This document shows, one piece after another, positions 11,242-31,430 of a stretch of 56,133 nucleotides of DNA. The position numbers and the translations under genes were made by a program. Source of the stretch: a virus (lineage: Duplodnaviria; Caudoviricetes); the IMG/VR virus record IMGVR_UViG_3300024232_000014, positions 1 through 56,133 of that record, one strand, 5' to 3'. Position 1 is the first letter of the stretch, and each line of letters opens with the position of its first letter. The notes below the pieces were generated by a model. The model ran no database searches. It saw only the letters and a list, made by a program, of their open reading frames with translations, and was not told where the DNA came from.

Positions 11242-12153
11242 TCAGACTCCGGAGAGAAGGCAGAGCGACAGCGGCTGGTCAAGGCCGATTGCCGATGCGC
11301 GCTGCGTGTCGGAACGCCAGGTCTTGCGCGGCTCGTCGCGGTACAGGGGACCCGCGAGGAACGGCAGCTCGTCTGCGTAGAAGCCCGAGCGGTGGCGCTG
11401 CATGACGATGGCGTTACCCGCAGGGACCTGGCGCGAGACGAGCACGTCCAGGTTGAAGATCTTCTGCGGGAGCACGCCGGTGTACTGGAGGTTCTCCGAC
11501 GCGATGTCGCCGATGTACGGGGCGGCGAACGTGCTGCTCTGGAGCAGGGTGTTCTTCGTCCCGTGGTTGATGATCAAGGTATCGGCTTCAAAGCCGAGCC
11601 ACTGAGTGACGCCAGAAGGCGAAACGATGTTCGCGTTCTCTACCAGGTAGCACGCCTGTGCGAGGTCCGAGCGGATCGTCGCGGCGGCGGTCGACCAGGG
11701 GTTGGAGACCGCCAGCGTCTGGATGTTGGCGTTGGCGACGACGGCCGAGTAGAACGCGGTGTTCCAGGAGTACACCATGGTGTTCTTCACCTGGAGTAGC
11801 TGCCTGGTCACCGGGTCGATCGACTGGCGGCGGCGCATCTCGTCGGAGACCATGATCGCCATGGCCCGCTCGTGCGAGAACACGACGCGGGGCGTGCCGA
11901 TGGAGGTCGGCATGACCGGGACCTCGCCGAACTCGGGCCGCACCTCGGGGAAGTCGTCGGCGTACAGCGGCGTCGACTCCGAGTAGCGGACCGCGCCGGA
12001 GGGAGCAGCGCCGCCCATGCGGAGAACGGAGTCCATGATGAACTCGTTCTCGGTGATGTCCAGAATGAGCGCTGGGATGACCAAGGGGTCCTTCAGCAGC
12101 TCGTTGACGGTTACTCTCGGAGCATCCGAGTAACCCCGTGCGCCCGTGGGCAT
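11242..12153 (-). CDS. major capsid protein
   Basis: 303 aa; VRPEFGEVP, MVSDEMRRR..IDPV.RQL, DTLIIN, AIGLDQP motifs of HK97-fold actinophage capsids; follows protease and decoration genes. Confidence 0.88.
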   Translation of the reverse strand: MPTGARGYSDAPRVTVNELLKDPLVIPALILDITENEFIMDSVLRMGGAAPSGAVRYSESTPLYADDFPEVRPEFGEVPVMPTSIGTPRVVFSHERAMAIMVSDEMRRRQSIDPVTRQLLQVKNTMVYSWNTAFYSAVVANANIQTLAVSNPWSTAAATIRSDLAQACYLVENANIVSPSGVTQWLGFEADTLIINHGTKNTLLQSSTFAAPYIGDIASENLQYTGVLPQKIFNLDVLVSRQVPAGNAIVMQRHRSGFYADELPFLAGPLYRDEPRKTWRSDTQRASAIGLDQPLSLCLLSGV

Positions 12154-12723: not shown

Positions 12724-13899
12724 TCAGAGGCCGGTCTGGTTCCTGTACCGGGCTACCAGCTCGGTGCGCGCCTGGTCGCCTCGCGCGGTGATGTCCGGCT
12801 CGTCGAAAGTCGAGCCCTGCTCGGAGCTGAGATCGAGCATGCTGGTGAGGCGGCCCATCTCGGCCAGCACGCGCCGCATGACGAGCCCGGCGTCCACGCC
12901 CTCCCCGTTGGCCAGCTCGACGACGTGGCCGCTGCCCTCCAGGAGAGGACGAGCCATGTCGACGATGTAGGGCGGCAGGCCGCCGTTGCGCGTGAGCTTC
13001 TGCTTCTCCAGCTCGTAGGAGTCAGCGTCCATCTTGCGCCGCATGACGCCGAGCTGGCGGTTGGTCTCCGCGAGCTGGATGTTAGCCAGCTCCACCGCGT
13101 CCCCGCCGAAGTTCGACAGGCTCGGGCCCGCGCCCGCTCCCGCGAGCTGCTCGGCCTCGAACTCGTCCTGGAGAGCGTCCAGGTCCTCAGCGTCAAGCTC
13201 GTCGACCAGGGCCGCCAGCTCCTCGTCGGTCAGCTCGTCCTCGTCGTACTCGCCGTCGGTGTCCGTGTCCACGACGCCGAGCAGCGCGTCGAGCTGCTCG
13301 TCGGACAGCGACAGCAGACGGTCGAGCCTCGCCTGCTGTGCTTGGGTCAGGCCAGCCATGCCGGTGTCCTCTCCTGCGATTTCCACGTCCGACAGGTCGT
13401 ACACCTGACCGGCGTCGTTTGACATTTCGACGTACTTCCACGGCCCGAGGTCCGGGATGCGCGGGTCGAGCGTGCCGAGGACGTGCTGCACGGCGGCCGG
13501 GAAGAACTTCCCGTCGGCCCGCTCGTACTCCTCGACGATCCTGGCAGACACGCCCAGCTTCGGGTTCTCGGTGAGCACCTGAGTGCCCCTGGCCGTCGGC
13601 TTCATCTTGATGTACAGCCCGTCATCGCCGAGCCGCATCGAGTGGATCTCGCCCCGGAACCGCTCGGGGTCGTTGGTGTGCGTGTTCTGCGCGTCCGCGA
13701 GCTGGAACGGCACCTGGTTGTAGGCCTGCGAGTTGAACGAGGTAACCAGGCTGCTGAGGTAGCTCGGGGTGAAGCTGAGCTTGCGGCCCTTGTAGTTGAT
13801 CTCCCCGATAGGGAGGATGCGCTTCTCCCAGAAGCCGTTGCCCACCGGCCTGGCGGCCGAGAGGTCAATCGGCGTGAGGATGGTCAGCCGCGCGCCCAC
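12724..13899 (-). CDS. capsid maturation protease fused to scaffold (Mu gpI-like)
   Basis: N-terminal ILP.G.I.Y.GR.L.F, H..DPE...G.I, LY......G, VSA.I, HV.GTLDP.I..L..W; acidic coiled-coil C-terminal half. Confidence 0.8.
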   Translation of the reverse strand: MGARLTILTPIDLSAARPVGNGFWEKRILPIGEINYKGRKLSFTPSYLSSLVTSFNSQAYNQVPFQLADAQNTHTNDPERFRGEIHSMRLGDDGLYIKMKPTARGTQVLTENPKLGVSARIVEEYERADGKFFPAAVQHVLGTLDPRIPDLGPWKYVEMSNDAGQVYDLSDVEIAGEDTGMAGLTQAQQARLDRLLSLSDEQLDALLGVVDTDTDGEYDEDELTDEELAALVDELDAEDLDALQDEFEAEQLAGAGAGPSLSNFGGDAVELANIQLAETNRQLGVMRRKMDADSYELEKQKLTRNGGLPPYIVDMARPLLEGSGHVVELANGEGVDAGLVMRRVLAEMGRLTSMLDLSSEQGSTFDEPDITARGDQARTELVARYRNQTGL

Positions 13900-14843
13900 T
13901 AGCTGGCCTTTCGTCCGAAGTTCTGAGCCCGCATGGCCATCTTCCGCGCGACGTCCATCTTCATGCCGCGCTTCATGAGCTTCTTGTAGATGGCCACGCC
14001 CCTGGGCGACAGGCCTCCGGCTCCGTCGTTGTCCGTGTCGCCGGTGGACGAGTCGTCATCATCGCCGTCGTTGTCCGGGTCGGAGGCGAACGCCCGCACG
14101 TTCCCGATCCCGAGCTGTGCCAGCAGCTCGGGCTGGCGCGGCGGTGCCTGGAGGGGCATCGTCGGCCTGGCGGGGTCGAGCGCGGTGCGGTTCCAGGTGC
14201 CGATCAGCTCCTGGAGCGCGGCGCGCTGGTGCGTGTGCGGGGACAGCTCCTTGCCGTCGATCAGCGAGCGCCAGGCGTTGTCCTCGCCTACGCCGATCTC
14301 GCCGATCAGCTCGCCGCCCATGCGGTGGCGGATGACCGCCGTGCCCGAGCCGCTGCGGCTGACGATGATGTCGGCGGCGTTGCGAACCGGGACGCGCGGC
14401 CTGCCGTTCGCCATCAGCAGTGCGCGCGTCCCGGTGTTGGCCAGGCCGACACTCGCTGTCCTGACGCCAATGGACTGCTCCGTGAAACCGGCCCGGCTCG
14501 CCCAGTCACCGCGAGCCTGGGTCTGAAGCTCCGGTGGCTGGCGGGGCGAGGATGTGCCGGACGCTCCGCCGCTGATCGCAAAGTCGGCGTCGTCCGATTC
14601 GTACCCGCAATTGGGGCACCTCGCCGTGCTTCCCGCGAGATCTACTGTTGCCCACGGGGTATTCGAGTGACCGTGGGACCGTCCGTGACTGCTCAACTTG
14701 GCAAATCCCTTCCGGCCGTACTTCTTGCGCCCGATGTAGGCCGCCAGGGCACCGGGGTTGGTCGCTCCGCGAGCTGCGAGCTTGGCAGACAGTGCCTTGA
14801 AATTGGCACCGCTGCCGGGCGGAGCGCCTGCCGTCGTAGGCAT
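13899..14843 (-). CDS. multi-module head-associated protein
   Basis: GGAGG RBS; NPGALAAYIGRKKYG module, CPNCG knuckle, acidic stretch; carries HSN..VDLA and LAN..LLMA motifs. Confidence 0.7.
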   Translation of the reverse strand: MPTTAGAPPGSGANFKALSAKLAARGATNPGALAAYIGRKKYGRKGFAKLSSHGRSHGHSNTPWATVDLAGSTARCPNCGYESDDADFAISGGASGTSSPRQPPELQTQARGDWASRAGFTEQSIGVRTASVGLANTGTRALLMANGRPRVPVRNAADIIVSRSGSGTAVIRHRMGGELIGEIGVGEDNAWRSLIDGKELSPHTHQRAALQELIGTWNRTALDPARPTMPLQAPPRQPELLAQLGIGNVRAFASDPDNDGDDDDSSTGDTDNDGAGGLSPRGVAIYKKLMKRGMKMDVARKMAMRAQNFGRKAS

Positions 14844-14876
14844 AACGCGGTTCCCTCCTGGTCACCTATCGCGACC

Positions 14877-14907
14877 ATAGTAGCTCTAACTGCCTGCCTG
14901 CCTGCAA
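14877..14907 (-). promoter_or_regulatory. possible housekeeping-sigma promoter for head genes
   Basis: TTGCAG-N19-TACTAT in the 80-bp gap; spacer is long; shares TTGCAGGCAGGC with the 45835..45862 site. Confidence 0.35.
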
Positions 14908-14923
14908 TAACATGCCGACAGTT

Positions 14924-17734
14924 TTAAGCCGCGCTCATCGCCAGTCTCGCGAATTGCGCCGCCTCTATTTCATTCAGTCCCAGCACTTCCATCGCAGCTT
15001 GTGCAACGCCTCTCGTGACTTCTCTCAGTGCACGTGAGTAATCCTCGTCCGCTGCGTGGTCCTTGATGCTCTGCGCCTTGGTGGCAATGGCCCTGCGGGT
15101 CTTGGCGATCATGTCGATGAACGCGGGACCGGCTGCTCCGACGGTCGCGGCGATCATCGGCACGACGACCTCCCACAGGTCCTTGCCGGAGATCGCCTCA
15201 CCGCCCGTGTGCACGCCGTAGCGGAAGGCCAGGAATCCGGCGAGGCCGCCCAGGGACGTGCCAAGGGCGATGCGGAAGTTGCTGTTGCGCTCGGAGATAA
15301 GCTCGGAGATCTTCTCGCTGGCCGCCAGCCTCTTCTCGGCTTCCTTGGCGCGCTCGGTCTCGGCCTGCTCCGCCTTCTGGGCGCGCAGCGACTCCATCTT
15401 CGCCAGCCGCTCATTGCGGCGCGTCGCCTGCTGGCTGAGGCTGCTGGCCGTCTGGACAGCCAGGACCGCCTCGGCGAGAGACTTGTTCAGCTCGTCCTGC
15501 CGGGACAGCAGGTCACTGAGCTGCCTGTTCTGCGCGTCGGAGAGGTTCATGCTCGCCGCGAACGCCTTGACGCCCTGGGAGAAGTCCCTGGTGGCGTCCT
15601 CCAGGCCGGTGCTGGAGGCCTTGAAGCTGCCCGGCGAGACGCCAGAGGTGCGGGCGATGTCCTCGGCAGACCTGCCCGGCGTCTTGGTCTTGCCTTCCAT
15701 CGAGGCCCGCATGGCGGCCCTGATGTGCGGGGTCGCGGCCTTGGGCCCGCCCCTGTCCGGCGTTGCCTGGCTGCGCACGGAGTTGAGCGGGTGGTACTCG
15801 CGCCTGGACTGGCGCACCTCGTCCAGGGTCTTGAACGTGCTCTTCCTGGTGCGCGCCGGCAACGGCCCCTCCATCGACGGCATGCTGCCACCAGCCCGCT
15901 CGAACTCGCCGTGCTTGCCGCGCTTGAGGTGAAAGTGACCGAGGAATGCCAGGTCAGACCCGAACCTGGACAGCTCGATCTGCTCGCCTAGCGATCCGGG
16001 CTGCTCCCCAGGGCTTCCTGGAGCTGCGCGGCCATCTTGTCGGCTGCCGCCAGCCGCTCCTCCTCCGGCAAGTCCCAGTACCCCTCCGGCACCAAGACGT
16101 GAGCCTTCTGAGGAGCGCCAGGCGAGGTTGTGGTCGATGATCCGTCCGCCACCGCTGCCTCCGGTGTTAATGGTGCTGAATGTGTTCAAGTCAAAGATAC
16201 CTACCTGGTCGCGCTCCTTGCCCAGGCGCTCCGCTTCTGCACGGTCCTGCACGTTCTGAGACGGGTCCAGCCAGAGATGGCCGTCTTCGACCCAGCCGCC
16301 GATGTACATGTCCTTGCCCTCGAACGAGCTGCGCTCGGACATGAGCATGTCGTCGATGGCCCGCCGTAGCTTGGCGCGGTCGTCGAGGATGGATGCCGGG
16401 TAACGGTGCGTGTGCCCGTCGAGCGCGACCATGTACCCGTGCACCGGCTGGCCGCCGGTCAGCGGGGAGACGGAGAAGCCCTCGCGGTCCTTCTCCATGA
16501 CCTTCACCGCGTCACTGGCCCCGCCGAACTTCGTCCACCGGCCGCGCGAGTCACGCGCCTGCATCGGGTTGAACGCCAGCTCGATCTGCTCGCCGAGGCT
16601 GCCGGAGAACGAGATCGGGTTCTCGTGCACGACGGCCGTGGTGCCCTTGTGCGTGGCGATGGTATGCCCGATGGCGTGCTGCTCCCAGGTGTCCCAGGCG
16701 CGCGAGGCGCGGCTGAACCTGCCCTTGGCCTCCTTCGCGCCTGCTACCTCCGAGAGCTTGCGGCCCTGCTTCACCAGCTCCTCGGCCTGCGCGACCAGGG
16801 CGGCGTCCAGCTCGTTGTTCTTGCGCTGCTGGCGCAGCCAGGTAATCGCCTGGACCTGGTGCGGGGCGATGTCGATACCGTCGCGGCGCGAGATGTCGAG
16901 CGCGGCCTTGCGGTACATGTCGGCCATGTACTGGTAGGTGTACGTCGAGCCGACCGGCGCGGCGGGCAGCTCCGATCGGTAGGCCTTCACCTGGTCTTCG
17001 TTCCAGTCCGGGTGCTCGGCGCGCACGTCGGCGTAGCTCGGGGTGTCCGTCTGGTCCTTGGTGAGCCGCCGCCCGGCCGCAACCGACAGCGCGTGCCGGT
17101 CCATGACGACCAGGCCCTCGGTGTCGTCCGGCGTGTCCCCGCCGTTGCGGATGAGCTGGTAGAACGCGTGCGTCTTGGGTGCCCCGGTCGGGAACAGGTC
17201 GTCGTAGGGCCCGTGGTCGCGCCCCAGGATGGCGTTGGCCTTGGTCTTCACCGCGCCGGTGATGCCCGTGCCGTGCTCGGGCGAGTGCCCCAGCTCCAGC
17301 GCGTGCGCCGCGTTCAGCGCGTTGGTCTGCCAGTCGGTCTGCGGGCTGTAGCAGGCCAGCAGCGCCGCGCCCTTGTCCGCGTCGCCGCCGCCGATCATCC
17401 GGGCCACGGTGTGCGCGTCGGAGTACCAGCGCATACCCTGGTCGCGCTCGTCGGTGTTGGCATCGTCGAACGCCGCGACGATGTTCTTGCTGCTCAGCCC
17501 GTACTTCTTGATGAACGCGTTGTCGCTGGCCTTGGCCTTGTTCGCGGCCACGCGGTCAACGGGAGGCTCCTTGTAGCGCTCGCCCGAGCCCCACTTCATC
17601 CCGGACAGCGTGCCCATGACGGTGCTGCCGTCCCGCGACCACTCGCCGTGGGCGTTGCGGTGCTCCAGCGGGTTGTACCGCCAGCCCAGGTCGATGAGCT
17701 GGCTGCCGAGCGAGTCGTCTGTCATCAGGCTCAT
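14924..17734 (-). CDS. large multi-domain head-associated (polyvalent-type) protein
   Basis: 936 aa; HhH-glycosylase-like region (WY..A, YSPQ..W..N, PKT.AF, V.MDRHA, P.QVQAITW), second domain (GFSV.P..G..P..GYMV, YIGGW, LD.S, A..LG....Q..IFDL), coiled coil plus two hydrophobic helices; three xQ(L)I[ED]L + RxxxGxW/F motifs. Confidence 0.75.
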   Translation of the reverse strand: MSLMTDDSLGSQLIDLGWRYNPLEHRNAHGEWSRDGSTVMGTLSGMKWGSGERYKEPPVDRVAANKAKASDNAFIKKYGLSSKNIVAAFDDANTDERDQGMRWYSDAHTVARMIGGGDADKGAALLACYSPQTDWQTNALNAAHALELGHSPEHGTGITGAVKTKANAILGRDHGPYDDLFPTGAPKTHAFYQLIRNGGDTPDDTEGLVVMDRHALSVAAGRRLTKDQTDTPSYADVRAEHPDWNEDQVKAYRSELPAAPVGSTYTYQYMADMYRKAALDISRRDGIDIAPHQVQAITWLRQQRKNNELDAALVAQAEELVKQGRKLSEVAGAKEAKGRFSRASRAWDTWEQHAIGHTIATHKGTTAVVHENPISFSGSLGEQIELAFNPMQARDSRGRWTKFGGASDAVKVMEKDREGFSVSPLTGGQPVHGYMVALDGHTHRYPASILDDRAKLRRAIDDMLMSERSSFEGKDMYIGGWVEDGHLWLDPSQNVQDRAEAERLGKERDQVGIFDLNTFSTINTGGSGGGRIIDHNLAWRSSEGSRLGAGGVLGLAGGGAAGGSRQDGRAAPGSPGEQPGSLGEQIELSRFGSDLAFLGHFHLKRGKHGEFERAGGSMPSMEGPLPARTRKSTFKTLDEVRQSRREYHPLNSVRSQATPDRGGPKAATPHIRAAMRASMEGKTKTPGRSAEDIARTSGVSPGSFKASSTGLEDATRDFSQGVKAFAASMNLSDAQNRQLSDLLSRQDELNKSLAEAVLAVQTASSLSQQATRRNERLAKMESLRAQKAEQAETERAKEAEKRLAASEKISELISERNSNFRIALGTSLGGLAGFLAFRYGVHTGGEAISGKDLWEVVVPMIAATVGAAGPAFIDMIAKTRRAIATKAQSIKDHAADEDYSRALREVTRGVAQAAMEVLGLNEIEAAQFARLAMSAA

Positions 17735-17943
17735 TGCGTCCTCGTCTCATCGGGAGCCATCCGGCCGAGCACCCGCACCACGTCGCCGACCTCGGCGAGC
17801 GCGGGCTTGTTGCCGGTGCCGAGCAGCCCGATGCCGATCTGGCGCACCTGCTCCATGGCGTCGGCAGACCGGGCAGCCGGATCGTGCCCAGCCCATTCAA
17901 GCAGGCCGTAGGCGCGCTGTCCTTCCGGAGTACGGCCGGTCAC
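17731..17943 (-). CDS. small hypothetical protein
   Basis: GTG at 17943 overlapping upstream TGA; its stop overlaps the next ATG (ATGA). Confidence 0.55.
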   Translation of the reverse strand: MTGRTPEGQRAYGLLEWAGHDPAARSADAMEQVRQIGIGLLGTGNKPALAEVGDVVRVLGRMAPDETRTQ

Positions 17944-19466
17944 GGCTTGGCCCCCTCGCCGTTCTTCTTGATCACCTGGCGGATCTTCTTCCTGGCCAGG
18001 TCGATGGTCACCTGCGGGTGGCCCTCTTTCCACTGGTGCTTCACGATGTCCTCGGCTTCCCCGATCGCTTCCACGACGGTGCTGTCCGTGATCGTCCCAG
18101 GACGGTAGCCCATGGTGCTGAAGATGAGCGCGGCCATGTGGCGCACCTTGCCCGCCGTGCCCTGGCTGTTGATCTGGTCGGCGATCCAGCCGATCTTCTC
18201 CGGGTCTTCCTTGCCGCCGTCGAGCACTGCGATGTACGCGCTGAAGTTGTAGGCGTCGGCTGTCCACTGGTTGTAGTGCTGCCAGGACGTTCCGTTGCGG
18301 ATGCGCTGCGGGCTGGCCATGTCCCTGGCCCACTCGCCGACGTTCTTGTTCGGCACCTCGTACATGTCATCGAGCTTGCGCTTGATGTCCCTGGCGCGCT
18401 CGGTGTAGTGCGGGTCGCCGAGGTGCCTCACGCGGGTCACCGCGTCGCCGATAGTCTCGATGTCCTCGTCCGAGCGCAGGTCGCGGAGAATGGCGCGGAT
18501 TTTCCCGGCCTCCTGCGTCTCAGGCGGGCGGCCGTCTTTCTCCAGCTCACCGGCCAGGTCGCCGAGTGAGGCCATCACCTGGTCCTGCTTGTCCTGGAAT
18601 ACCTGGTCAGCATTGTCGACCGGGAACCGCGTCTTGCGGTCCGCTACTCCGGTAGCCCTGAAGAACTCCTCGGCGTGCTGCGCGGTGCCGAGCTGGGTGA
18701 ATCCCTCTTCGATCGCCCTGACGCTGCTGTCCTTCTCGTTGTAGGCCATGCTGTCGTCAGCGCGGAACTCGTTCGGCTTCTCGTGCTCGCCTTTCGGCTC
18801 GACGGCATGGATCATCTCGTGCAGCGGCACGATCAGCGGGTCAGGGTCGTCTACCGTCTCGCCGGGCTTGTCGAGAATTGCCGTCAGCTCTTTGGCGGTG
18901 TTCTCCTCGATGAACATCTGCCCGTCCCAGCCCATCTGGGCAAGGGCACCTGGATGCTCGTTCTCGCTGAACTCTTCCGGAGGCTTCCCGTTCCAGTAGA
19001 GAGCGGTATTGTCGCCGAAAAGCGCCGGGACGATACGCACGTTCTTCTGCATCCATTCGTGGATGCGCTCTATTTCCGGGCTGTCTCCCGGTATTTCCCC
19101 GCCTGGATTCAATGCCGCGATAGCGTCCTTGTACGCCGCTACCCTGACTCTGGCATCATCGACAACTGACTTATTGGTCGATTCGTGCGTGATCCGGTAG
19201 GCGTACTCGAATGCGCTGGAAAGCGAGTCGGCAGCCTTCTGGTCGTCTCCGTCCCTCAGCGCTTTTATCGCATTGCCGAGGTGCCTGTCCTCGGTGTACC
19301 GGGCACCGGGCAGCTTGCTCAGCCGGTTGACGATCCCCTGGTGCGCCGGTGCATCCAGTGCTGCGCCTGCGCCGTGCACCCAGCGCCCGTCCGGTGCCCG
19401 TACCTCGTGCCGCCATGCGTTCCGCCAGCCGCCCGACAGCTCGATCTGCTGTCCGGGCGTCGTCAC
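17940..19466 (-). CDS. zincin-like metallopeptidase domain protein
   Basis: HEMIH (HExxH) with downstream IEEG third-ligand motif; N-terminal QQIELS...RAPDGRW. Confidence 0.7.
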   Translation of the reverse strand: MTTPGQQIELSGGWRNAWRHEVRAPDGRWVHGAGAALDAPAHQGIVNRLSKLPGARYTEDRHLGNAIKALRDGDDQKAADSLSSAFEYAYRITHESTNKSVVDDARVRVAAYKDAIAALNPGGEIPGDSPEIERIHEWMQKNVRIVPALFGDNTALYWNGKPPEEFSENEHPGALAQMGWDGQMFIEENTAKELTAILDKPGETVDDPDPLIVPLHEMIHAVEPKGEHEKPNEFRADDSMAYNEKDSSVRAIEEGFTQLGTAQHAEEFFRATGVADRKTRFPVDNADQVFQDKQDQVMASLGDLAGELEKDGRPPETQEAGKIRAILRDLRSDEDIETIGDAVTRVRHLGDPHYTERARDIKRKLDDMYEVPNKNVGEWARDMASPQRIRNGTSWQHYNQWTADAYNFSAYIAVLDGGKEDPEKIGWIADQINSQGTAGKVRHMAALIFSTMGYRPGTITDSTVVEAIGEAEDIVKHQWKEGHPQVTIDLARKKIRQVIKKNGEGAKP

Positions 19467-20092
19467 TTCAGTGCCTTGGCCTGGGCAATCGCCGTGGCCG
19501 CTGCCGTCAGGTACTGCTGGATCTGCTTGTTAAGCGCCTGGATCTGCGTCCTGAGCTGGTTCTGCGAGGCGGTGGTGTTGAGGCTGGAGGTAGAGCCCGG
19601 TGCCTGCGTGAGGCTGGACGAGGTGCCTGCCGGGTTAGTTGCCCCGGTCGCTGCGGTCGCCGGTGCAGGCGCGCTCGATGCCGTCGTGGAGCCCGCCTGG
19701 CTGCCGGTGGTCGAGCCCGACTGGCCCATGTTCACCTGGCCGCTCGCGCTGGCCAGCTCCTTCTGGAGCAGGTCGCGCTTGGCGATCAGCTCGTGCGCCT
19801 TCTGCCGGTCGCTGGCTGCCGAGGTGAGCAGTACGTGCTTCTGGTGCTGCACGTGCGCCGCGTGCGCCGAGGCAGGCACCGACTTGGGCAGCGGGACGCC
19901 CTTGACGCCCTTGCCCTTCGGCGCGGGCTTGCTGCCCTTGCCCGCCGTTGCCTGGCCCTGGCCGCCCTTGGTGAACTCGCCCGCGACGTTGCGCGCTTCC
20001 TTCTTGGCGTTAGCCGAGCGCGCGTTGCCGCTGCCCGCCGAGGTCGAGCGCGGTCCGCTTGCGCTGCTGGTGGCCGGAGCCGCGAGCAGCAC
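19463..20092 (-). CDS. low-complexity coiled-coil protein; probable -1 frameshift extension of 20092..22866
   Basis: No well-spaced RBS before GTG; lies in the -1 frame just after C CCA AAA; contains RNVAGEF motif. Confidence 0.6.
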   Translation of the reverse strand: MLLAAPATSSASGPRSTSAGSGNARSANAKKEARNVAGEFTKGGQGQATAGKGSKPAPKGKGVKGVPLPKSVPASAHAAHVQHQKHVLLTSAASDRQKAHELIAKRDLLQKELASASGQVNMGQSGSTTGSQAGSTTASSAPAPATAATGATNPAGTSSSLTQAPGSTSSLNTTASQNQLRTQIQALNKQIQQYLTAAATAIAQAKALK

Positions 20093-22866
20093 TACCCTTT
20101 TGGGAGCAGTACCGCCAGCTCGACAGCTCGGGATGCGTCGTCCCAGTTAGACAGGCCTGCATTGCGCCGCCTGGTAGCCGCCGTGCGCCGCGCTGCCTGG
20201 GCGCTCGTCTCGCCGAACGCGGAGCGCTGCTCCCTGGTCAGGAGCGGCCCGGCCAGGTTCTCCATGTTCCGCCCGCCTGGGTTCTTCATCCTTGGCGGTG
20301 CGGTGTACGGAGCTACCTTGGGCGGCCCGAACGGGTCGCGGGGAGCCTTCGGCACCGAGCGCCGGGCGGGAGCGGTGCGCGCCGCGTACGCCTTGGCGGC
20401 TGCCTCGCGCGCCGCGTTGGCCTTCGGCGAGGTGTCGATGCGCCCTGTGCGGTTGCCGGACGGCAGGCTGCCCAGGGTGCCCGCGTGGCGCTGGATCTGC
20501 TCGCCGAGGCCGCTGTCCGAGCCGTGCGCGAACTCCGACCTGGCCGACTTCCCGGCCGCCGCGACGTGCGCCCTGGCCCGGTCGTAGTCACCGGCCCCGA
20601 TCGCCCTGGCCGCGCTGCGCAGCGAGTTGGCCGAGGAGGACCCGCCGCGCCGCTGGAAGCTGCCGTAGCCCTCGGAGTCGTCCGTGGCGTTGTACAGCGG
20701 GGCACCGACTCCTGCCCGGTCCGGGTCGTTGTTGCGCAGCATGGCCGCCCGCTCCGCCTTGTCGGCGAGGTCGTGGAGCCGCTGCACGTGCTCGGCCGGG
20801 GAGAGCTTGCCGCCCTGGCCCCGGTTGAAGTCGCCCTTGGGCGCGTGCTCGACCTGCGAGTGCCCCTTGACGGTCTGCTTGTAGACCTTGCCGGTGCGCT
20901 CGTGCATCACCCGCAGGGTGACCTTGCTGTTCTTGCCGCTGCCGTGGTGCTCCGCCGACAGCACGCGGTGCGGGCCGAAGCCCGCCCGGCCGCCCTCGAA
21001 GCTCGCCATCAGCCGGTCGCCCGCCTTGACCGCCGAGGCGTGCGTGCTGCGGTGACCGCCCTTGTGCGGCGTCGGGTCGAAGCCTGGGTCGCCTGCGCGC
21101 TTGAAGCCGTGGGACCAGCCTCCGGCACCGACCAGGTTGATCTCGCGGGCGGCGGTGCCGCCGGACAGGTTCCTCAACTTCTTCCCCTTAGCAGTGCGCG
21201 CGGTGTCGTCCGCTGCCTGGTCGATGACAGCCCCGGCGTGCGAGATGTGCTTGCCGAGCGTGTAGGAGTTGCCGATGGCGTTGCGGTAGGTCGCATCGCC
21301 ACGGCCTCCGGCGTAGAACTCGTGACTGCGCAGCGTGTTCTGCGCCGCGCGCAGATGCTGGCCGGCAGTGTCGAAGTCGCCGCGCCGCACAGCGTCGGCT
21401 GCCGTGCGGACGTGATCGCCGAGGCCCTTGCCGGGGTGGTCGCTGTCGAGCTTGCCTGCCAGCTCGCCGAGCGACTTAGCCCATTCGCCGTGGGCACCGC
21501 GCAGCTCGTCCTGCCAGCCCAGCTCAACGGCGCGCTGTCCGGTATTCGAGTACCCGCCCTGGCGGGACGGCGGCAGCGGGCCCGGCTGGTCGTTGCCCAG
21601 CGGGTTCCAGGCCCTGGCGATGGGGTTGCGCTGCCCTGGCTCTTTCACCTTCCCGCGCGAGCGGGCCACCTGCGCGCCGATGGTGTCGATCCGGCGCGCG
21701 TGGATGTCGTCGGCGCTGCCATGGTGCTCGCTGCCGTACGCGCCCCGGCCGATAGCCCCGGACGCGTTGATCAGGTGCCCCCTGGCCTGGGCGAGGTCGC
21801 CCTTGGCCAGCGCCTCGTGCGCCATGCCCAGGTACTGCTGGGTGCTTCTGTGGCTGCCTGCGTGGTCGGATGCGGCGATGCTGGAGCTGACTGCCTTGAC
21901 GGCCGCCGCGAGCTGCCCGCTGGTCCACTTCCCGCCCTTGCCACGGCGCTCGCTCATCCAGGCCGGTGCAAGCTCGATAGCGTCTGCACGCCCGTTTGCG
22001 TGTGCGTGTGCACGTGCCTGGGCGGCGATCTCCATGGCCTCTGCTCCTGTCGCGGCAGCTCTCACCTCGGGGTGCTTGCTCTTGGCACCCCACTTGCGGA
22101 TGGAAGCCCGCGCGATGCCGTAGGCCCTGCCCGGCGGCATGCCGCGCTTCTCGATGAGCGCCTTGACCACCTGCTGGAGGTACGGAGAGTGCTCGTTGCC
22201 CTTGACGCGGTACAGGCCGGGACCGCCTGGCCGCCCTCGCGGTGCGGGGGTGACGGCGAGGCGCGCGGTCTCCGCCGACAGCTCGACCGCCGTGGTGAGG
22301 TCGCCGCTGTTGCTCGCCGCGATCTGCTTGGTGACGTGCCAGCTCGTGACGCTCTTGGGCTTGGCCACGTTCTCGTCGACTCCGCCGGTCGGCAGCTCCG
22401 CAGGCGTCTGCATCGGGTTAGCGCCCTTGCGCGCCGAGGGGATGTCGCTGTTGGGCATCCCTGTCTCGTCGCCCGGCATCTGCCCCATGGCCGTCAGGTT
22501 CTCGTTGTGCGCCTCGTGGTCCTGGATGTCCTTGACCAGCAGCAGGTGCCGGTGCACCGCGTCCATGTGCGCCTTGGCCTGGTGGTACTCGGCGTCCGTG
22601 ACCATTCCGTGACGGTACAGGCTCTGCGGCTGGAAATTGCCGATAGCGGCGTTCAGGTGCCGCACCGCGCCCTCGCTGTTCTGGCGCTCCAGCGCGTTGG
22701 CCGCGTCCTTCAGGTGCTGGTGGGAGCCCATGCGAGGGTGGTGGTCCTCCAGCTCCTTCGCCAGCGCCCGGATCTGCACGACGGTCTCCCGGCGCATCTG
22801 GCCGGTCGGCTTCCAGGCGTTCTGCCTGGCCTGGGGCGGGCGGTACACGCCCTTCCTACCGCTCAC
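20092..22866 (-). CDS. large basic multi-module head-associated protein
   Basis: 924 aa Ala/Gly/His/Arg-rich; repeated helical modules (A..A...GD...A..HL..A) separated by xSN..[VI]EL[ASG] motifs. Confidence 0.75.
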   Translation of the reverse strand: MSGRKGVYRPPQARQNAWKPTGQMRRETVVQIRALAKELEDHHPRMGSHQHLKDAANALERQNSEGAVRHLNAAIGNFQPQSLYRHGMVTDAEYHQAKAHMDAVHRHLLLVKDIQDHEAHNENLTAMGQMPGDETGMPNSDIPSARKGANPMQTPAELPTGGVDENVAKPKSVTSWHVTKQIAASNSGDLTTAVELSAETARLAVTPAPRGRPGGPGLYRVKGNEHSPYLQQVVKALIEKRGMPPGRAYGIARASIRKWGAKSKHPEVRAAATGAEAMEIAAQARAHAHANGRADAIELAPAWMSERRGKGGKWTSGQLAAAVKAVSSSIAASDHAGSHRSTQQYLGMAHEALAKGDLAQARGHLINASGAIGRGAYGSEHHGSADDIHARRIDTIGAQVARSRGKVKEPGQRNPIARAWNPLGNDQPGPLPPSRQGGYSNTGQRAVELGWQDELRGAHGEWAKSLGELAGKLDSDHPGKGLGDHVRTAADAVRRGDFDTAGQHLRAAQNTLRSHEFYAGGRGDATYRNAIGNSYTLGKHISHAGAVIDQAADDTARTAKGKKLRNLSGGTAAREINLVGAGGWSHGFKRAGDPGFDPTPHKGGHRSTHASAVKAGDRLMASFEGGRAGFGPHRVLSAEHHGSGKNSKVTLRVMHERTGKVYKQTVKGHSQVEHAPKGDFNRGQGGKLSPAEHVQRLHDLADKAERAAMLRNNDPDRAGVGAPLYNATDDSEGYGSFQRRGGSSSANSLRSAARAIGAGDYDRARAHVAAAGKSARSEFAHGSDSGLGEQIQRHAGTLGSLPSGNRTGRIDTSPKANAAREAAAKAYAARTAPARRSVPKAPRDPFGPPKVAPYTAPPRMKNPGGRNMENLAGPLLTREQRSAFGETSAQAARRTAATRRRNAGLSNWDDASRAVELAVLLPKG

Positions 22867-23509
22867 TCAGCAGCATCCTTCCCCCAGGCCACGGTCGGCC
22901 CGGATAACAGCGGCAGTGCGGGTGAACTCCGCCGGGGTAACCGATCAGGGGCATGTGGTCTACCAGGAAGTTCTTCCCGTTCGCATGCCTGCATTCTGCC
23001 GAGGTTCGCTTGTCAAGTACAGTGTGCCATCCGAGCAGCCTGCCGTAAGTCATGGCGGCTGAGTCTGCCTGTGCTCCTGCCTGCGACCGTTTCCAGATGG
23101 CCTGGAGGTGCGAGCCGAAGTAGCGCCGCTCGCGGTCGTAGGCCTCGCGCAGCGCCTGCGGCAGGGACACGCCGCGCGAGCGCGCCGTCTTCAGGTCGGT
23201 CATCACGCGCCGCGAGGATGCGATGGCGAACTGGACGCGCCGCATCAGGTTGAGCCGGGCGGTCCGCGCGGTCGCCGCGCCGAAGAATCCCTGCTGCTCG
23301 GGCGGCATGCTCATGATCACGTCGACCGACACGCGCATGGCGCGCGGGGAGATCCCGGCGGTCTTCAGCGCCGCCAGCACCGTGACGGAGCCCAGGATCT
23401 CCGCCGTGGAGACGTACGTGGCCAGGGCAGCCGCCAGCGCCGCTACGAGCTGCGCGTCCTGCTGCGGGCTAGGTGCCTGCTGCGGTGGTGCCGCCGTCGT
23501 TGCTGGCAC
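22856..23509 (-). CDS. MuF-like (SPP1 gp7 family) minor head protein
   Basis: W.TVLD.RTS.EC....G...PG.VHPHCRC C-terminal signature; downstream of portal. Confidence 0.8.
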   Translation of the reverse strand: MPATTAAPPQQAPSPQQDAQLVAALAAALATYVSTAEILGSVTVLAALKTAGISPRAMRVSVDVIMSMPPEQQGFFGAATARTARLNLMRRVQFAIASSRRVMTDLKTARSRGVSLPQALREAYDRERRYFGSHLQAIWKRSQAGAQADSAAMTYGRLLGWHTVLDKRTSAECRHANGKNFLVDHMPLIGYPGGVHPHCRCYPGRPWPGGRMLLSER

Positions 23510-24328: not shown

Positions 24329-25978
24329 TCATGCCATCTGTCCAGGTGGGGGTGTCATCGGCGGCTTCGCCGGTGGAGTAGGCGGTCCTGACTGCGGCGC
24401 GAGGCCGGGTGCGCGCTGGCCAGGTGGCGGAGGCTGGCGCAGCGCGCCGGGGTTCTGCGCCCCGGCTCGCTGGGCGATGCTGAACGCCGCGTTCGTCATC
24501 CCCTGCACAGCGCCGAGACCGGCTGCTGCCTCGGGAGGCATGCCGGGCGGCGGGTTGCCCGCGAGCTGCTCGGCTCTCTGGTTGGCGGTGGAGACCAGGG
24601 CATCGTGCACGGCATCCTGGTCGAGCTGGAGGATCGAGGCCATGCGCTCGGTGATCAGGTCGAAGACCGGCAGCGGGATGTGCAGCACCTGGGCGGCCGA
24701 GAGCTGGCCGAACAGGGTGAGCAGCGCCTGCGCCTGCTCGTCCTCCAGCGGGCCGAACTTCCAGGTGGGGAAGGACGCCTTGGTGCCGAAGTTGAGCAGG
24801 ATCAGCGGGCGGATGATGTCGTAGCTGATCGACTCGCTGACTTCCTCGGCGATGGCCTGGCGGGACTTCAGGAAGAAGCTGCTCTGGTCCTGGGACAGGG
24901 CATAGCTGCCCTTGCCGCCGGTCGCGCCGCCGGTCAGCGCGAGGAAGCCCGCCAGGATCGAGTGCGTCTGCCAGCTCTCCAGGAAGTTCATCGCGGCCGA
25001 GAAGAACGCCCCGCCGTCGCCGCTGCTCTCCAGCACCTCGAAGGTCTTCTGGCCGTCGGCCGGCCGGATGAGGCCGACCACGCCGGAGGACTTGAGCGCG
25101 GCTATGTCCGAGGCCTTCGTGTTCGCCTCGGGCTGGTCGTTGCCGTAGACCACGGTCCTGGGCAGCGCCTGGTTCTCCAGGAAGTGATACCAGAGGTACA
25201 GGAGCTTCATCTTGGTCTGGTAGCACCAGTAGCAGACTTCCATCTCCGACGCGCCGGTCAGCGGCTCGCGGTACTTCCCGTGCGTGTAGATGTACGAGCG
25301 CATTTTCGGGATGTCGACGTAGCCCGGTACCTTCTGCTTGCGGTTGAGCATCAGGTTGCCGCCGAAGAGCCAGACCTGCTGACGGAATCCGTTGGCCTGG
25401 CCTGTGCGGTCGTTGTACCTGGCCTGGCAGGTGGACGGCGGCCGGTAGGAGATCCGCTCGTAGATGACCTTCTCGTCGTCGTCCCTGATGGTGAAGGTCT
25501 TCTCGAAGAAGGAACGCCGGTAGAGCTGCGCGGTAGTGATCTGGCCAACCAGGTCGGTGACCGGCGTCTTCATGCCGCCCTCGGTGTCGGGGGTCATCAG
25601 CACGCCGTGGATGAACTCCGCCTCGCCGCTGTCGCCCTTGCCGCCCTGGATCATCCTGCCCGCCTGCCTGATCGGCAGGGTGAGCGCGCTGGACAGCGCA
25701 GCGGAGATGCCGTCGCGGGCGAGCATGACCTTCATGTCGCGAGCGCCCCACGAGCCGTAGTCGAAGACGTCGCCCTCGCCGTAGTACGCGAACAGCCGCT
25801 GCCCCCAGTCGAACTGGGTGCCGATCTCAGCCCCCATCAGGGCGCTCTTGCCGCCGTAGGCGTGACTCCCCTTCGGCGCGAGGTCCGGGAAATCGTAGAC
25901 CTGGGCGGTCTTCCCGTCCTGCTTGACCGTAGAAGTGCCGTTACTGCGTGGTGGCATCTCGTGAACCTCCAGCGTCAA
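24329..25978 (-). CDS. portal protein (Mu gp29/DUF935-like)
   Basis: Follows TerL; M...DG..A.L....LPI, GSYALS..Q..FF, IIRPLI.LNFG....P...F motifs. Confidence 0.88.
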   Translation of the reverse strand: MTLEVHEMPPRSNGTSTVKQDGKTAQVYDFPDLAPKGSHAYGGKSALMGAEIGTQFDWGQRLFAYYGEGDVFDYGSWGARDMKVMLARDGISAALSSALTLPIRQAGRMIQGGKGDSGEAEFIHGVLMTPDTEGGMKTPVTDLVGQITTAQLYRRSFFEKTFTIRDDDEKVIYERISYRPPSTCQARYNDRTGQANGFRQQVWLFGGNLMLNRKQKVPGYVDIPKMRSYIYTHGKYREPLTGASEMEVCYWCYQTKMKLLYLWYHFLENQALPRTVVYGNDQPEANTKASDIAALKSSGVVGLIRPADGQKTFEVLESSGDGGAFFSAAMNFLESWQTHSILAGFLALTGGATGGKGSYALSQDQSSFFLKSRQAIAEEVSESISYDIIRPLILLNFGTKASFPTWKFGPLEDEQAQALLTLFGQLSAAQVLHIPLPVFDLITERMASILQLDQDAVHDALVSTANQRAEQLAGNPPPGMPPEAAAGLGAVQGMTNAAFSIAQRAGAQNPGALRQPPPPGQRAPGLAPQSGPPTPPAKPPMTPPPGQMA

Positions 25979-25988
25979 TCATGCCTGG

Positions 25989-27749
25989 CTAGCGCCAGGA
26001 ATGCACTGCCGCCCGGCTAGGACGAACGTCTTCTCTTTCATCAGCAACAGACTGCGGCGCAAACCCGTCCGTGCTCCAGTCGCCTCCAGCCTGGTTGAGC
26101 GGCCCGCCGGAGGCTTCCTCCAGCCGCCGCGCCATGCGCGAGTCGTGGCTGTCCTCGGGCATCTCGAAGCCGATCCTGCCTCCGGCCGCGTCCAGGATGT
26201 CCCCGCTGTCCAGAGCGTAGTCGTACGACCTGGCTGCCTCTGGCTCGCGGCCGGACAGGTACAGGAACTTGGTCATGCCCCAGACCAGGGAGTCGAGCCG
26301 GTCCGGCGAGCGCTCCTTGGCCGCGCCGGTGAACGTGCACATCTGGTCTTCCAGCTCGACCATCGACTCGACCGCCAGCTCGCCGAACGCGTCCTTGGCC
26401 AGCATCTTGCAGTGCTTGACCTTGTTGCGCTGGTAGAGCGCGGCTACCGGCTCGGCGCGCGTCCGCTTGTTCTGGCTGGACCAGACCTCTTCGACGTACG
26501 GCACCCGGCCGGGCGGCATGACCGGCTCGAACTTGCGGCACTCACACTCCTCGTCGCGGCAGCGCCCTGCCTTGGCGTGCTCGTGCGCGCAGTTCGCGCA
26601 CTCAGCTTGCAACTCCTTGATCACCTGGTGGAACATGGCGACCATCCACTTGCCGCCGTGGTTGCGCTCGACGACGATCCGCGCCTCCCACTCGATCGCC
26701 TTCAGCACGACGCGGCGCGCGAACAGCGGCGGGGACTCCTGGCCGCCCCAGTTCTCGGCGACATACACGGTGTCATCGCCGCCGAAGCCGAGGCCCATGA
26801 TGGTGTAGGCCTGCTCGTCGCTGTTCTCCGAGCCGTCGGACGGGTCGACGCCGATGACCGCGTTCCGCAGGTAGGCCTCGCCCTCGGGCCCGCTGATCAC
26901 CGGCACCTGGATGCGCTCGATCAGCTCGCGCGTCCACAGCGAGTTGGGCACGTCGTCGAGCAGCACGCCTTCCAGCTCCTGCTGCTCCAGTCTCGTGCCC
27001 TTGTTCGCGCCGATGACAGCCCTGTAGAAGGCCTCAGACAGGTGCTTGCGGTTGTCGACGGTCCGCAGCCGCCGCACGATCACGCCGCCGTGCTGCGGCT
27101 CGTCGCGGACCAGGGAGCGGACCAGCTTGGCGGCCGGGCGGGCAGCCTTGGGCGTCCCGGTTGCGATGATCACCGACGCGCCCATACGGACCGCGTACCG
27201 CAGCGACTCGTTCCAGGTAGTGTCCCACTTGTCCCAGAGCCCTACCTCGTCGCACCAGGCAGCCTTCAGGTTGCGGCCCTGGATGCGCAGGCCGCCTTCT
27301 GCGGCCGAGTCGGCGTAGATGATGATGCCGTTGTGCAGGACCACCTGGCCGTACGTCCGCCAGGCACTGCGCACCGTCTTGGAGCGGTGGTCCTTGATCT
27401 CGGCCATCGAGGTGCCGAGCGCCCGCAGGATGCCGCTCTCGCCCTCCACGCACTTGGTCCAGGCGTCGGCGTAGGTGGGCGCGATGATGCCGTACTCGCC
27501 CTCGCCGTCGGTGTCAGCCAGCACGAGGTCCGCTAGCCCCTGCGCGCCTGCCCTGGTCTTCCCGCTGCCACGGCCGCCGGACAGGTAGAGCACCCGCCAG
27601 GTGTTGTCTCTCTCGGGCAGGAGCTGCTCGGGCCTGGCAGTCTGACGCCAGCGCAGCCGGGGGTCCTCCGGAGCGCTGGCGTACCTCGTGCCTACCAGGC
27701 CGAGCGCCGCCACGTCGGAGTGGTGCGCCCCGATGGCGGTAATGCTCAT
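25989..27749 (-). CDS. terL: terminase large subunit
   Basis: Walker A GGRGSGKT, Walker B AWCDE, TGTP, QELEG, nuclease VIGVDP, K..RAEPVAALY, SPDRLDSLVW. Confidence 0.95.
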   Translation of the reverse strand: MSITAIGAHHSDVAALGLVGTRYASAPEDPRLRWRQTARPEQLLPERDNTWRVLYLSGGRGSGKTRAGAQGLADLVLADTDGEGEYGIIAPTYADAWTKCVEGESGILRALGTSMAEIKDHRSKTVRSAWRTYGQVVLHNGIIIYADSAAEGGLRIQGRNLKAAWCDEVGLWDKWDTTWNESLRYAVRMGASVIIATGTPKAARPAAKLVRSLVRDEPQHGGVIVRRLRTVDNRKHLSEAFYRAVIGANKGTRLEQQELEGVLLDDVPNSLWTRELIERIQVPVISGPEGEAYLRNAVIGVDPSDGSENSDEQAYTIMGLGFGGDDTVYVAENWGGQESPPLFARRVVLKAIEWEARIVVERNHGGKWMVAMFHQVIKELQAECANCAHEHAKAGRCRDEECECRKFEPVMPPGRVPYVEEVWSSQNKRTRAEPVAALYQRNKVKHCKMLAKDAFGELAVESMVELEDQMCTFTGAAKERSPDRLDSLVWGMTKFLYLSGREPEAARSYDYALDSGDILDAAGGRIGFEMPEDSHDSRMARRLEEASGGPLNQAGGDWSTDGFAPQSVADEREDVRPSRAAVHSWR

Positions 27750-27753
27750 CGCG

Positions 27754-28014
27754 CTACAGGACCGTCCAGTCGTCCGACAGGAGGTCGATCTGCGCCGCGA
27801 GCCACGGCATGCAGGTGCCGTCGGCGAGCTTCATGTCGATGTGCGGCCGGTAATTGATCTCGGTGCCCGGCTCGTAGATGCCGAGCAGTGGCGGCCGGTT
27901 GACCTTGAACGTGCTGCCGGGCACCAGGTAGAGGAACATCCCCTTGCCGTTCCACCCGCTGCGGCAGACGCGCCCGCCGTTCTTGAGCGCTTCGAGCGCC
28001 TGTCCGAAGTCCAT
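27754..28014 (-). CDS. tad2: DUF2829 family protein, Tad2-like anti-defence sponge
   Basis: MDFGQALEALK.G.RV.R.GWNGKGMFL...PW..Q.DLL.DDW is the DUF2829 signature. Confidence 0.8.
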   Translation of the reverse strand: MDFGQALEALKNGGRVCRSGWNGKGMFLYLVPGSTFKVNRPPLLGIYEPGTEINYRPHIDMKLADGTCMPWLAAQIDLLSDDWTVL

Positions 28015-30719: not shown

Positions 30720-31301
30720 CTAGCAGCCGTCGTACGGGGTCCAGTCGCTGTAGCCGTCGTCATGGACGGTCTGCCAGAAGACAGCCGTCTGCTCGGCCGG
30801 GCCCGCCTTGCCGAAGTCGGCCGGCGCACCGCCGTGCGCGCTCCAGGTGGACGCGCTGAACTGGTAGAGGCCCCAGTGCCCGGTCGCATTCCAGATGTAC
30901 GGGTTGCCGCCGCTCTCGCGGCTGATGATGCACTGCTGCATCACGGTCGAGCCCTGGTAGGAGATGACGTGCTGGCTAGCGAGCTGCGTGCCCGCTGCGG
31001 CTGTCGCGGGCATGGCCGCGAGCTTCTGCCGCTCCTCGGCCGCAGCCGCCAGCGCGGCAAGCCGCTTGAGGTGCGCCAGGTGGGCCAGGTGCTTGAGGTG
31101 CAGTACGTGGTTCTGCTGCCAGGTCAGCGCGGGTATCGTCTGGTAGTCAGGCTGCGTGTACGACACGTAGCGGATGACCTGCGGGTTTGCCGAGCCCGCG
31201 AAGATGAAGCCGAAGGCCAGGAGAGGCGTGCACACTGCGGTGCAAATTGCGGCGAAAGTTGCCCGGAATTTACGGGTCGCCCCATGTCGCCAGGTGAGCA
31301 T
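30720..31301 (-). CDS. Rpf-like lytic transglycosylase, membrane-anchored or secreted
   Basis: ATG at 31301 with AAGGA RBS; N-terminal TM; CI..RESGGN...GLYQF..STW...GG...A...EQ catalytic signature. Confidence 0.8.
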   Translation of the reverse strand: MLTWRHGATRKFRATFAAICTAVCTPLLAFGFIFAGSANPQVIRYVSYTQPDYQTIPALTWQQNHVLHLKHLAHLAHLKRLAALAAAAEERQKLAAMPATAAAGTQLASQHVISYQGSTVMQQCIISRESGGNPYIWNATGHWGLYQFSASTWSAHGGAPADFGKAGPAEQTAVFWQTVHDDGYSDWTPYDGC

Positions 31302-31430
31302 GTGTGTATCCTTGCTCTCGTTGATAGTTCGCCGCCTGGCGAGGGGACTGCCAGGTACCAGCCTCGCCTGCGGCACGCTTCGCCGACGATAACAGCCCGG
31401 TCTCGTCCTTGGCCACAAAATCGCCGAATG

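Follow-up and report, generated by a model that had tools for sequence, protein, structure and literature searches.

A shared acidic motif connects candidate head cargo modules with a gp21-like protease-scaffold protein in an uncultured tailed soil phage

From MuF to the capsid gene, the IMG/VR virus record IMGVR_UViG_3300024232_000014 has roughly 9 kb of genes that are otherwise blank. What do they encode, and what becomes of their long products? The record (56133 bases, 67% G+C, estimated completeness 63%) was analysed over its whole length, hereafter called the window, with genes called by a GC3-based heuristic. Its head genes follow one another on the minus strand as terminase, portal, MuF, open reading frames (ORFs) of 924, 209, 508, 936 and 314 amino acids (aa), a 391-aa ORF, a 166-aa ORF and the major capsid gene. 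A first-pass annotation of the sequence had noticed a short repeated motif in these ORFs and had proposed polyproteins that are packaged and cut by a Mu gpI-like protease into separate effectors for injection. We consider it probable that the large proteins encoded between the portal and capsid genes are packaged in the capsid, where the head protease of the phage would cut them into pieces, because the same acidic motif marks the cargo modules and fills the head protease itself.

Every peptide listed in the first-pass annotation was found in the minus-strand ORFs, and the 508-aa ORF holds an additional IDLA (residue 488) that was missing from that list (Table 1). The six head ORFs (the five cargo ORFs and the 391-aa ORF, 3282 aa in all) hold 13 copies of the strict motif core, [VI][ED]L[ASG], against a mean of 0.72 in composition-keeping shuffles, none of which reached 13 in 500 trials. 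In the 66 other called ORFs (12612 aa) it was met three times, at the level of their shuffles (mean 3.23; Fisher p = 3.5e-7 for head versus other ORFs). The confinement that had been claimed, to the ORFs from MuF to capsid together with the protease-scaffold protein (the 391-aa ORF), thus holds in the window, and it holds also in the relatives described below. Four permuted control patterns gave 0 to 1 match in the head ORFs, while the longer pattern of the first-pass annotation was found six times there and nowhere else, and QIEL[AS] three times versus none. Six of the cores have R-x3-G-[EKR]-[WF] (hereafter the tag) within the next 22 residues. We stress that the motif was defined post hoc, after first being seen, and that a relaxed pattern has an additional match in the 936-aa ORF (LELG, residue 146) that belongs to a helix inside a DUF7178 domain and is not a linker site.

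The 391-aa protein was modelled with AlphaFold2 (from 30 homologues), which gave a confident domain at aa 1-147 and two stretches (148-182 and 254-265) with a predicted local distance difference test (pLDDT) under 50. Searched with Foldseek against the PDB, the model matched at E <= 0.001 solely the three 5jbl chains of T4 gp21 (E 7.9e-5, probability 1.00, TMt 0.58), and the next matches were the herpesvirus proteases (assemblin), at E 2e-3 and above. H74, S118, H139, D168 and L169 are invariant in 30/30 aligned homologues, and the C-terminal half is acidic, helical and scaffold-like. Because of the confident N-terminal domain, its matches to T4 gp21, the invariant H74, S118 and H139 and the scaffold-like second half, the protein is, as modelled, a protease-scaffold fusion of the gp21/assemblin fold. 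By sequence it does not belong to the Mu gpI family, since protease family profiles remained unmatched: no protease family was found for it in Pfam (E <= 0.01) or PHROG searches, Mu-like_Pro (PF10123), Peptidase_S77 (PF03420), S78, ClpP and S49 had no match anywhere in the window at E <= 10, and a profile built from the homologue alignment gave 0 matches to PDB sequences at E <= 1. Hence, of the earlier 'Mu gpI-like protease', the prohead protease is retained through its T4 gp21 fold, but the Mu label is not. The invariant D168-L169 (part of YDLS at residue 167, which falls outside the strict core) sits in the low-confidence linker directly after the protease domain, and a conserved LSN-x-AIELAN lies at the second low-confidence stretch. 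The family is large: of 8000 candidates that were scored, at least 832 proved to be protease-scaffold homologues (E <= 0.001).

A comparable arrangement was seen in the cargo. In the 936-aa ORF, AlphaFold2 placed confident domains at residues 51-370 and 392-542 and gave pLDDT <50 for 1-50, 371-391 and 543-605, and all three of its motif sites (14, 384 and 586) fall inside these low-confidence stretches between or around the domains, each followed by an R-x3-G-x-W/F tag. The protein comprises DUF7178 (Pfam 1.2e-31, aa 82-229), an alpha/beta domain and a helical C-terminal part; Foldseek returned nothing at E <= 0.001 for its model (weak DUF2419 and 8-oxoguanine glycosylase rows stood at E 0.5 to 1). 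The domain parsing that the first-pass annotation had called for therefore came out in its favour for this ORF, and its statement that the motif marks borders between unrelated domains is borne out by these linker sites and by the homology blocks that start at the motif, but not throughout, as parts of the 924-aa protein consist of a repeated helical hairpin. A predicted complex between the 391-aa protein and residues 366-415 of the 936-aa ORF scored 0.24 versus a mark of 0.32 and is counted neither way.

The search for relatives in IMG/VR yielded no loci when the single 391-aa protein served as query and required an alignment; 193 of 202 candidate stretches were confirmed by the alignment profile and 80 loci were kept. 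In the 26 loci with a full 10-kb upstream flank (every ORF counted once), the strict motif was recorded 92 times in cargo ORFs versus a shuffle mean of 12.0 (highest of 100 shuffles, 21) and 69 times versus 4.6 in protease-scaffold proteins, while the downstream ORFs had 22 versus 12.3, the capsid proteins 0 versus 2.0 and the portal proteins 0 versus 1.2. Expressed per 1000 aa (fetched loci with the protease gene called), its density was 6.99 in the protease, 1.33 in cargo, 0.45 in downstream ORFs and 0 in capsid and portal. Likewise, no strict motif was found in 60 capsid homologues (17058 aa) or in the portal homologues (5408 aa).

The cargo proteins of different loci are shuffled at the motif. 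From 1119 distinct internal starts of BLAST alignments among them, 241 lie within 8 residues of a motif (random placement: mean 51.6, maximum 73 in 200 trials), as do 109 of 1102 alignment ends (random mean 54.3), and the same modules appear fused or as separate ORFs across the relatives. Many relatives have a copy of the module that two motifs delimit in the 924-aa ORF (aa 193-300), and its place varies: it may be internal, close an ORF or open one. The 508-aa module is fused within larger proteins (residues 572-1074 of 1086 in locus L004 and 1541-2067 of 2127 in L031). The motif-less 209-aa ORF has a homologue in L004 that is fused in frame after a motif. Motifs are also placed early, within the first 25 residues of 35 of the 227 cargo ORFs with a complete N-terminus versus 2 of 527 downstream ORFs. 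In the window, a short leader ending at the motif opens the 508-aa and 936-aa ORFs (core at residues 8 and 14). Where a motif-less ORF start aligns inside another cargo protein (209 pairs), 35 pairs (12 distinct ORFs) start exactly after the E/D of the motif, and every other offset accounts for at most 5. The 314-aa ORF of the window is among the exact cases: its N-terminus aligns to the residue directly after an internal motif of relatives. Relatives begin with a short leader followed by LDLA. We regard this peak as suggestive of a mature N-terminus produced by a cut after the acidic residue.

The tag reaches further than the motif. A degenerate DNA pattern for its variant NPxQxRDxxGRW retrieved 92 IMG/VR stretches from contigs of 42-75% G+C. 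The viral contigs concerned (L084-L174) are highly diverse; [FYW]-NP-x-Q-x-RD-x-x-GRW often opens an ORF, and in one of them, L129, it directly follows the C-terminal end of a MuF domain. The residues ahead of it vary by phage group, often being Lys-x-[FY] or the start codon. When 48 tag-bearing contigs were searched with the protease profile, six encoded the protease and all six carried the motif immediately before the tag, versus 2 of the 42 contigs without protease (one of the two a 27%-complete fragment) and 0 of the 12 protease-less contigs that were >= 90% complete (Fisher p = 2.3e-6 for the co-occurrence, the six positives including close pairs). In the Streptomyces phages LazerLemon and Marky, an ADP-ribosyltransferase protein has VLDFA ahead of an HGW tag, and the protease-scaffold proteins have the matching sites VLDFS and VDF[SA].

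The reading that we favour, and hold to be somewhat better than an even bet, is that head cargo is made here as chains of modules, each headed by a protease site and a tag and cut by the 391-aa prohead protease. The five ORFs between MuF and the 391-aa gene would encode cargo of the polyvalent kind, each module opening with a two-part peptide, x-[VIL]-[ED]-[LM]-[ASG] followed by R-x3-G-x-W or, in some modules, x-R-H-G-W. Its first part would be recognised by the prohead protease that the phage itself encodes at the N-terminus of the 391-aa protein (the domain of gp21/assemblin fold), with the cut likely placed after the acidic residue, and the sites within the protease-scaffold protein would serve its self-cleavage and exit from the head. 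The second part would be a widespread tag, left near the new N-terminus, possibly with a role in loading or ejection. Packaging in the capsid, cleavage at this bond and delivery into the host are all things that we infer.

The motif might instead serve for docking or targeting, or might simply be a conserved strand at the beginning of a module header; it would bind the scaffold, the protease or another head part and stay uncut, its position at borders then resulting from the shuffling of cassettes. Motif and tag do move together as an N-terminal header, one copy in the scaffold part belongs to a confident beta-hairpin, and co-variation with the protease-scaffold family suits binding as well as cutting. 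Moreover, the targeting leader of T4 indicates that such peptides can act in loading (available text of PMC9026906). What makes docking unlikely to us, if still the most serious competitor, is that stand-alone modules start one residue after the acidic position in a sharp peak (35/209 pairs), where a binding strand would be lost. The invariant D-L, in addition, lies in a disordered linker right after the protease domain, and T4 gp21, to which the protease is closest in structure, cleaves after Glu (as stated in the available text of the same source).

A different cutter may be sought in the 508-aa ORF, whose HEMIH is a zincin-type HExxH and for which Atlas gave weak metallopeptidase leads (all below 0.9); Iyer et al. 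propose autoproteolysis by such domains (PMC5512222, available text). Cleavage by this enzyme with the head protease uninvolved is improbable, however, as it has a homologue in only 6 of the 17 related loci in which MuF and protease delimit a cargo block, 7 of the 17 blocks hold at least two strict motifs without a zincin homologue (5 of those 7 without any HExxH), and motif density is highest in the protease-scaffold protein itself. We give hardly any credence to the idea that the motif arises by chance or from composition in proteins rich in Ala, Glu and Leu, or that recent duplications left it behind: it is short and was defined post hoc, but the shuffles and permuted patterns fall far below the observed count and the relatives repeat the confinement. 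As for duplication, the three QIEL sites are alike over ~25 nt (84% identity), but long DNA repeats were not found in the window; the motif is not the product of recent DNA duplication, since the likeness is limited to those ~25 nt at those three sites. DNA-level recombination linkers were also considered as the origin of the motif and dropped, because similarity is confined to the motif's own codons while the residues vary (V/I/L, E/D, A/S/G).

Several points weigh against the favoured account of cutting by the 391-aa protease. The literature searched held no protein-level data on the window phage or its cultured relatives (an endolysin paper came without virion proteomics). The conserved scaffold-part copy at aa 323-331 of the 391-aa protein, placed by the model in a confident beta-hairpin (pLDDT ~90), may be structural and not cut. 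The relaxed pattern exceeds expectation in downstream ORFs (48 matches versus 26.9 by shuffle), mostly through one conserved LDLA in a head-tail protein and one in a small post-protease ORF. The relatives' counts are not independent events because of shared ancestry, and as the loci were selected by their protease gene the set cannot show absence of the motif without the protease, a point on which the comparison of the 48 tag-bearing contigs alone bears. Near-identical pairs are included among the six protease-positive tag contigs, and the more distant DUF7178 proteins P0145-P0148 are motif-less. Finally, because ORF starts in the 209-pair analysis follow our own first-start-codon rule, that evidence is suggestive and not proof.

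More tentatively, and with less confidence than in the reading for this phage, we consider a modular cargo code in two parts across tailed phages: a cut site that depends on the protease type and a near-universal tag (NPxQxRDxxGRW or WxHExRxxxGxW). The cut site would be [VIL]-[ED] then [LM]-[ASG] here and a Lys-x-[FY] junction or the ORF start in other tag contigs, and the header would be enough for any enzyme module to enter the capsid, undergo trimming and be delivered together with the DNA. Such a code, if true, would account for the building and shuffling of polyvalent proteins.

In the terms of Iyer et al. 2017 (PMC5512222), the cargo proteins of the relatives count as polyvalent proteins. 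The 936-aa ORF of the window combines two confident unrelated domains with a helical tail between the MuF and capsid genes, and in its full-length homologues ADP-ribosyltransferase, alpha/beta hydrolase, PI3/PI4-kinase-like and GNAT domains are also present. In a set of 53 cargo ORFs taken from relatives, Pfam recognised DUF7178 in 14, 2H ligase-like (2H phosphoesterase) domains in 5, zeta toxin and ADP-ribosyltransferase in 2 each, and ParB, TROVE, GNAT and others once each; their cargo reaches 2127 aa, with DUF7178 and a hydrolase. In the window only DUF7178 and the zincin HExxH (HEMIH) are recognisable, so that the 'separate effectors' of the first-pass annotation are backed by the effector-type enzyme domains of the relatives but not by the cargo of the window itself. 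The likeness to the polyvalent proteins described in the available text of Iyer et al. lies in large multi-domain products encoded among virion genes and in ADP-ribosyltransferase, 2H phosphoesterase, GNAT, ParB and metallopeptidase domains (in the relatives), and the difference in the processing, attributed there to the proteins' own metallopeptidase domains (before packaging, in the head or after injection, a matter left open) and proposed here to involve motif and head protease. That text mentions no shared linker motif or head protease ('head protease' occurs 0 times, 'prohead' once).

Further observations concern individual cargo ORFs. The 936-aa protein ends (aa ~800-936; window 14924-15400) in an extended helical stretch, part of which, around aa 855, is hydrophobic, a make-up that recalls the membrane-active ejection proteins of other phages. 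A helical hairpin of ~35 residues (L..A..A[LI]..GD...A..H[LV]..A) is present in four copies in the 924-aa ORF and one in the 508-aa ORF, usually ~40 residues past a tag and with a weak, sub-cut-off match to Pfam YfdX; Atlas gave nothing usable for residues 449-916 of the 924-aa ORF. At window positions 20061-20124 the 924-aa ORF stops 7 residues past a motif, its TAG sharing one base with the GTG at which the 209-aa ORF begins; upstream of that GTG the 209-aa frame is open for ~19 codons, and a CCCAAAA run precedes the 924-aa stop. This junction could reflect translational coupling or a frameshift.

Table 1. Head-region features of the window, with the residues of each motif core and, in brackets, their window positions (pI, isoelectric point)
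Feature	Window coordinates	Strand	Motif cores	Evidence
Terminase	25989-27749	minus		
Mu-type portal	24329-25978	minus		
MuF-like head morphogenesis protein, 217 aa; upstream border of the cargo block	22856..23509	minus	none	Pfam Phage_Mu_F 4.7e-8
924-aa candidate cargo polyprotein, basic, pI 10.2	20092..22866	minus	194-197 (22276-22287), 297-300 (21967-21978), 447-450 (21517-21528), 915-918 (20113-20124)	
209-aa ORF, basic, low-complexity, pI 10.8	19463..20092	minus	none	
508-aa candidate cargo ORF; N-terminal motif and tag header, HEMIH zincin motif	17940..19466	minus	8-11 (19434-19445), 488-491 (17994-18005)	
936-aa candidate cargo polyprotein	14924..17734	minus	14-17 (17684-17695), 384-387 (16574-16585), 586-589 (15968-15979)	
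314-aa candidate cargo ORF	13899..14843	minus	67-70 (14634-14645)	
391-aa predicted protease-scaffold fusion; protease ~aa 1-147, acidic helical scaffold part ~aa 180-391	12724..13899	minus	11-14 (13858-13869), 167-170 (13390-13401), 269-272 (13084-13095), 327-330 (12910-12921)	AlphaFold2, Foldseek
Major capsid protein; downstream border	11242..12153	minus	none	phrog_1650 3.5e-69

An N-terminal protease and a C-terminal scaffold joined in one gene beside the capsid gene are known from P2 gpO, Mu gpI/gpZ and lambda gpC/Nu3, and nested scaffold gene starts from Mu I/Z and lambda C/Nu3. The 391-aa gene shares this layout and a possible nested internal start; it differs from the Mu and lambda proteins in that Mu-like_Pro and Peptidase_S49 are unmatched in the window. 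Within it (window 13330-13400, minus), a purine-rich GGAGAGGA stands ~8 nt upstream of the codon for Met181 (ATG at 13359), where the scaffold half starts and where Met or Val predominates in the alignment of 30 homologues, so that Met181 may be a nested scaffold gene start. Directly 3' of the protease gene, eight related loci (L010, L020, L027, L042, L052, L058, L077 and L081) have an ORF of 64-78 aa with a conserved [VL][ED]LS near residue 30; the window lacks such an ORF.

As a general idea, it is already known from phages of the T4 and phiKZ type that head cargo can have targeting leaders and be processed by a prohead protease at short sites with an acidic residue. According to the available text of the sources, T4 gp21 cuts after Glu in L/I-X-E and phiKZ in S/A-X-E, a 10-residue targeting leader is removed in T4 (PMC9026906), and SPN3US gp245 behaves likewise (PMC10052503). 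The candidate system of the window resembles T4 gp21 with IPI-III and Alt in the protease fold, in a short site whose presumed cut falls at an acidic residue and in short N-terminal leaders ending in the site (the ADP-ribosyltransferase in the relatives' cargo recalls Alt). In contrast to gp21, the 391-aa protein falls outside Peptidase_S77 by sequence and is fused to a scaffold, and the site is [VIL]-[ED] then [LM]-[ASG] rather than L/I-X-E. The cargo here forms long multi-module chains with internal sites, whereas that of T4 consists of small single proteins, and the phage that encodes the head module has a portal of the Mu type along with MuF, its nearest cultured relatives being Streptomyces phages. 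With phiKZ gp175 and SPN3US gp245 it has in common many head proteins cut after Glu, several sites per protein and self-processing of the protease, as far as the available text of both sources (PMC9026906, PMC10052503) describes them and as we would expect here. Those phages are, however, giant myoviruses whose sites mostly remove propeptides, whereas the sites of the window separate shuffled modules and a second tag follows each. The MuF-fused polymorphic toxins (Jamet et al. 2017, PMC5576092) carry a toxin domain on the C-terminus of MuF; the MuF of the window is a stand-alone protein of 217 aa, with the Pfam match extending to ~residue 201, and has none.

Among cultured phages, 11 Streptomyces phages and Microcystis phage Mwe-JY05 have the closest matches to the 391-aa protein (38-45% identity), and in all the records listed the match is annotated as a hypothetical protein; no paper mentioning Mwe-JY05 was found in the literature search. 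With the DUF7178 module as tblastn query, four cultured-phage records were matched, all of them cyanophages (25-28% identity). Of the records of the cultured Streptomyces griseus phages Crosby (L001), LazerLemon (L175) and Marky (L176), in which the protease-scaffold homologue is a 'hypothetical protein' throughout, one names MuF 'capsid maturation protease' and the other two name it 'capsid morphogenesis protein'; the homologue of the 166-aa ORF of the window is called 'scaffolding protein'. Elsewhere in the window, an 86-aa ORF adjoining the terminase gene (27754-28014, minus) matches Pfam Tad2-like (Thoeris anti-defence 2, E 8e-25), and a 232-aa ORF (30720-31418, minus) has an Rpf-type transglycosylase-like domain at its C-terminus (Pfam PF06737, E 7.4e-7).

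The literature searched, including a search on the tag strings, contained no description of the motif, of the protease family as a protease or of the tag; supplements (that of Iyer et al. 2017 among them) were outside the search and may describe linkers or small domains. If the proposed processing is true, a large family of uncultured high-GC phages would cut multi-enzyme cargo with its head protease at a site that can be read from sequence, which would give a rule for predicting the mature cargo proteins and a function for ~9 kb of otherwise blank genes per genome. The annotation of the protease and MuF genes of Crosby, LazerLemon and Marky would then have to be corrected, and the release of polyvalent proteins, a step left open in the available text of Iyer et al. 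(PMC5512222), would have a testable route.

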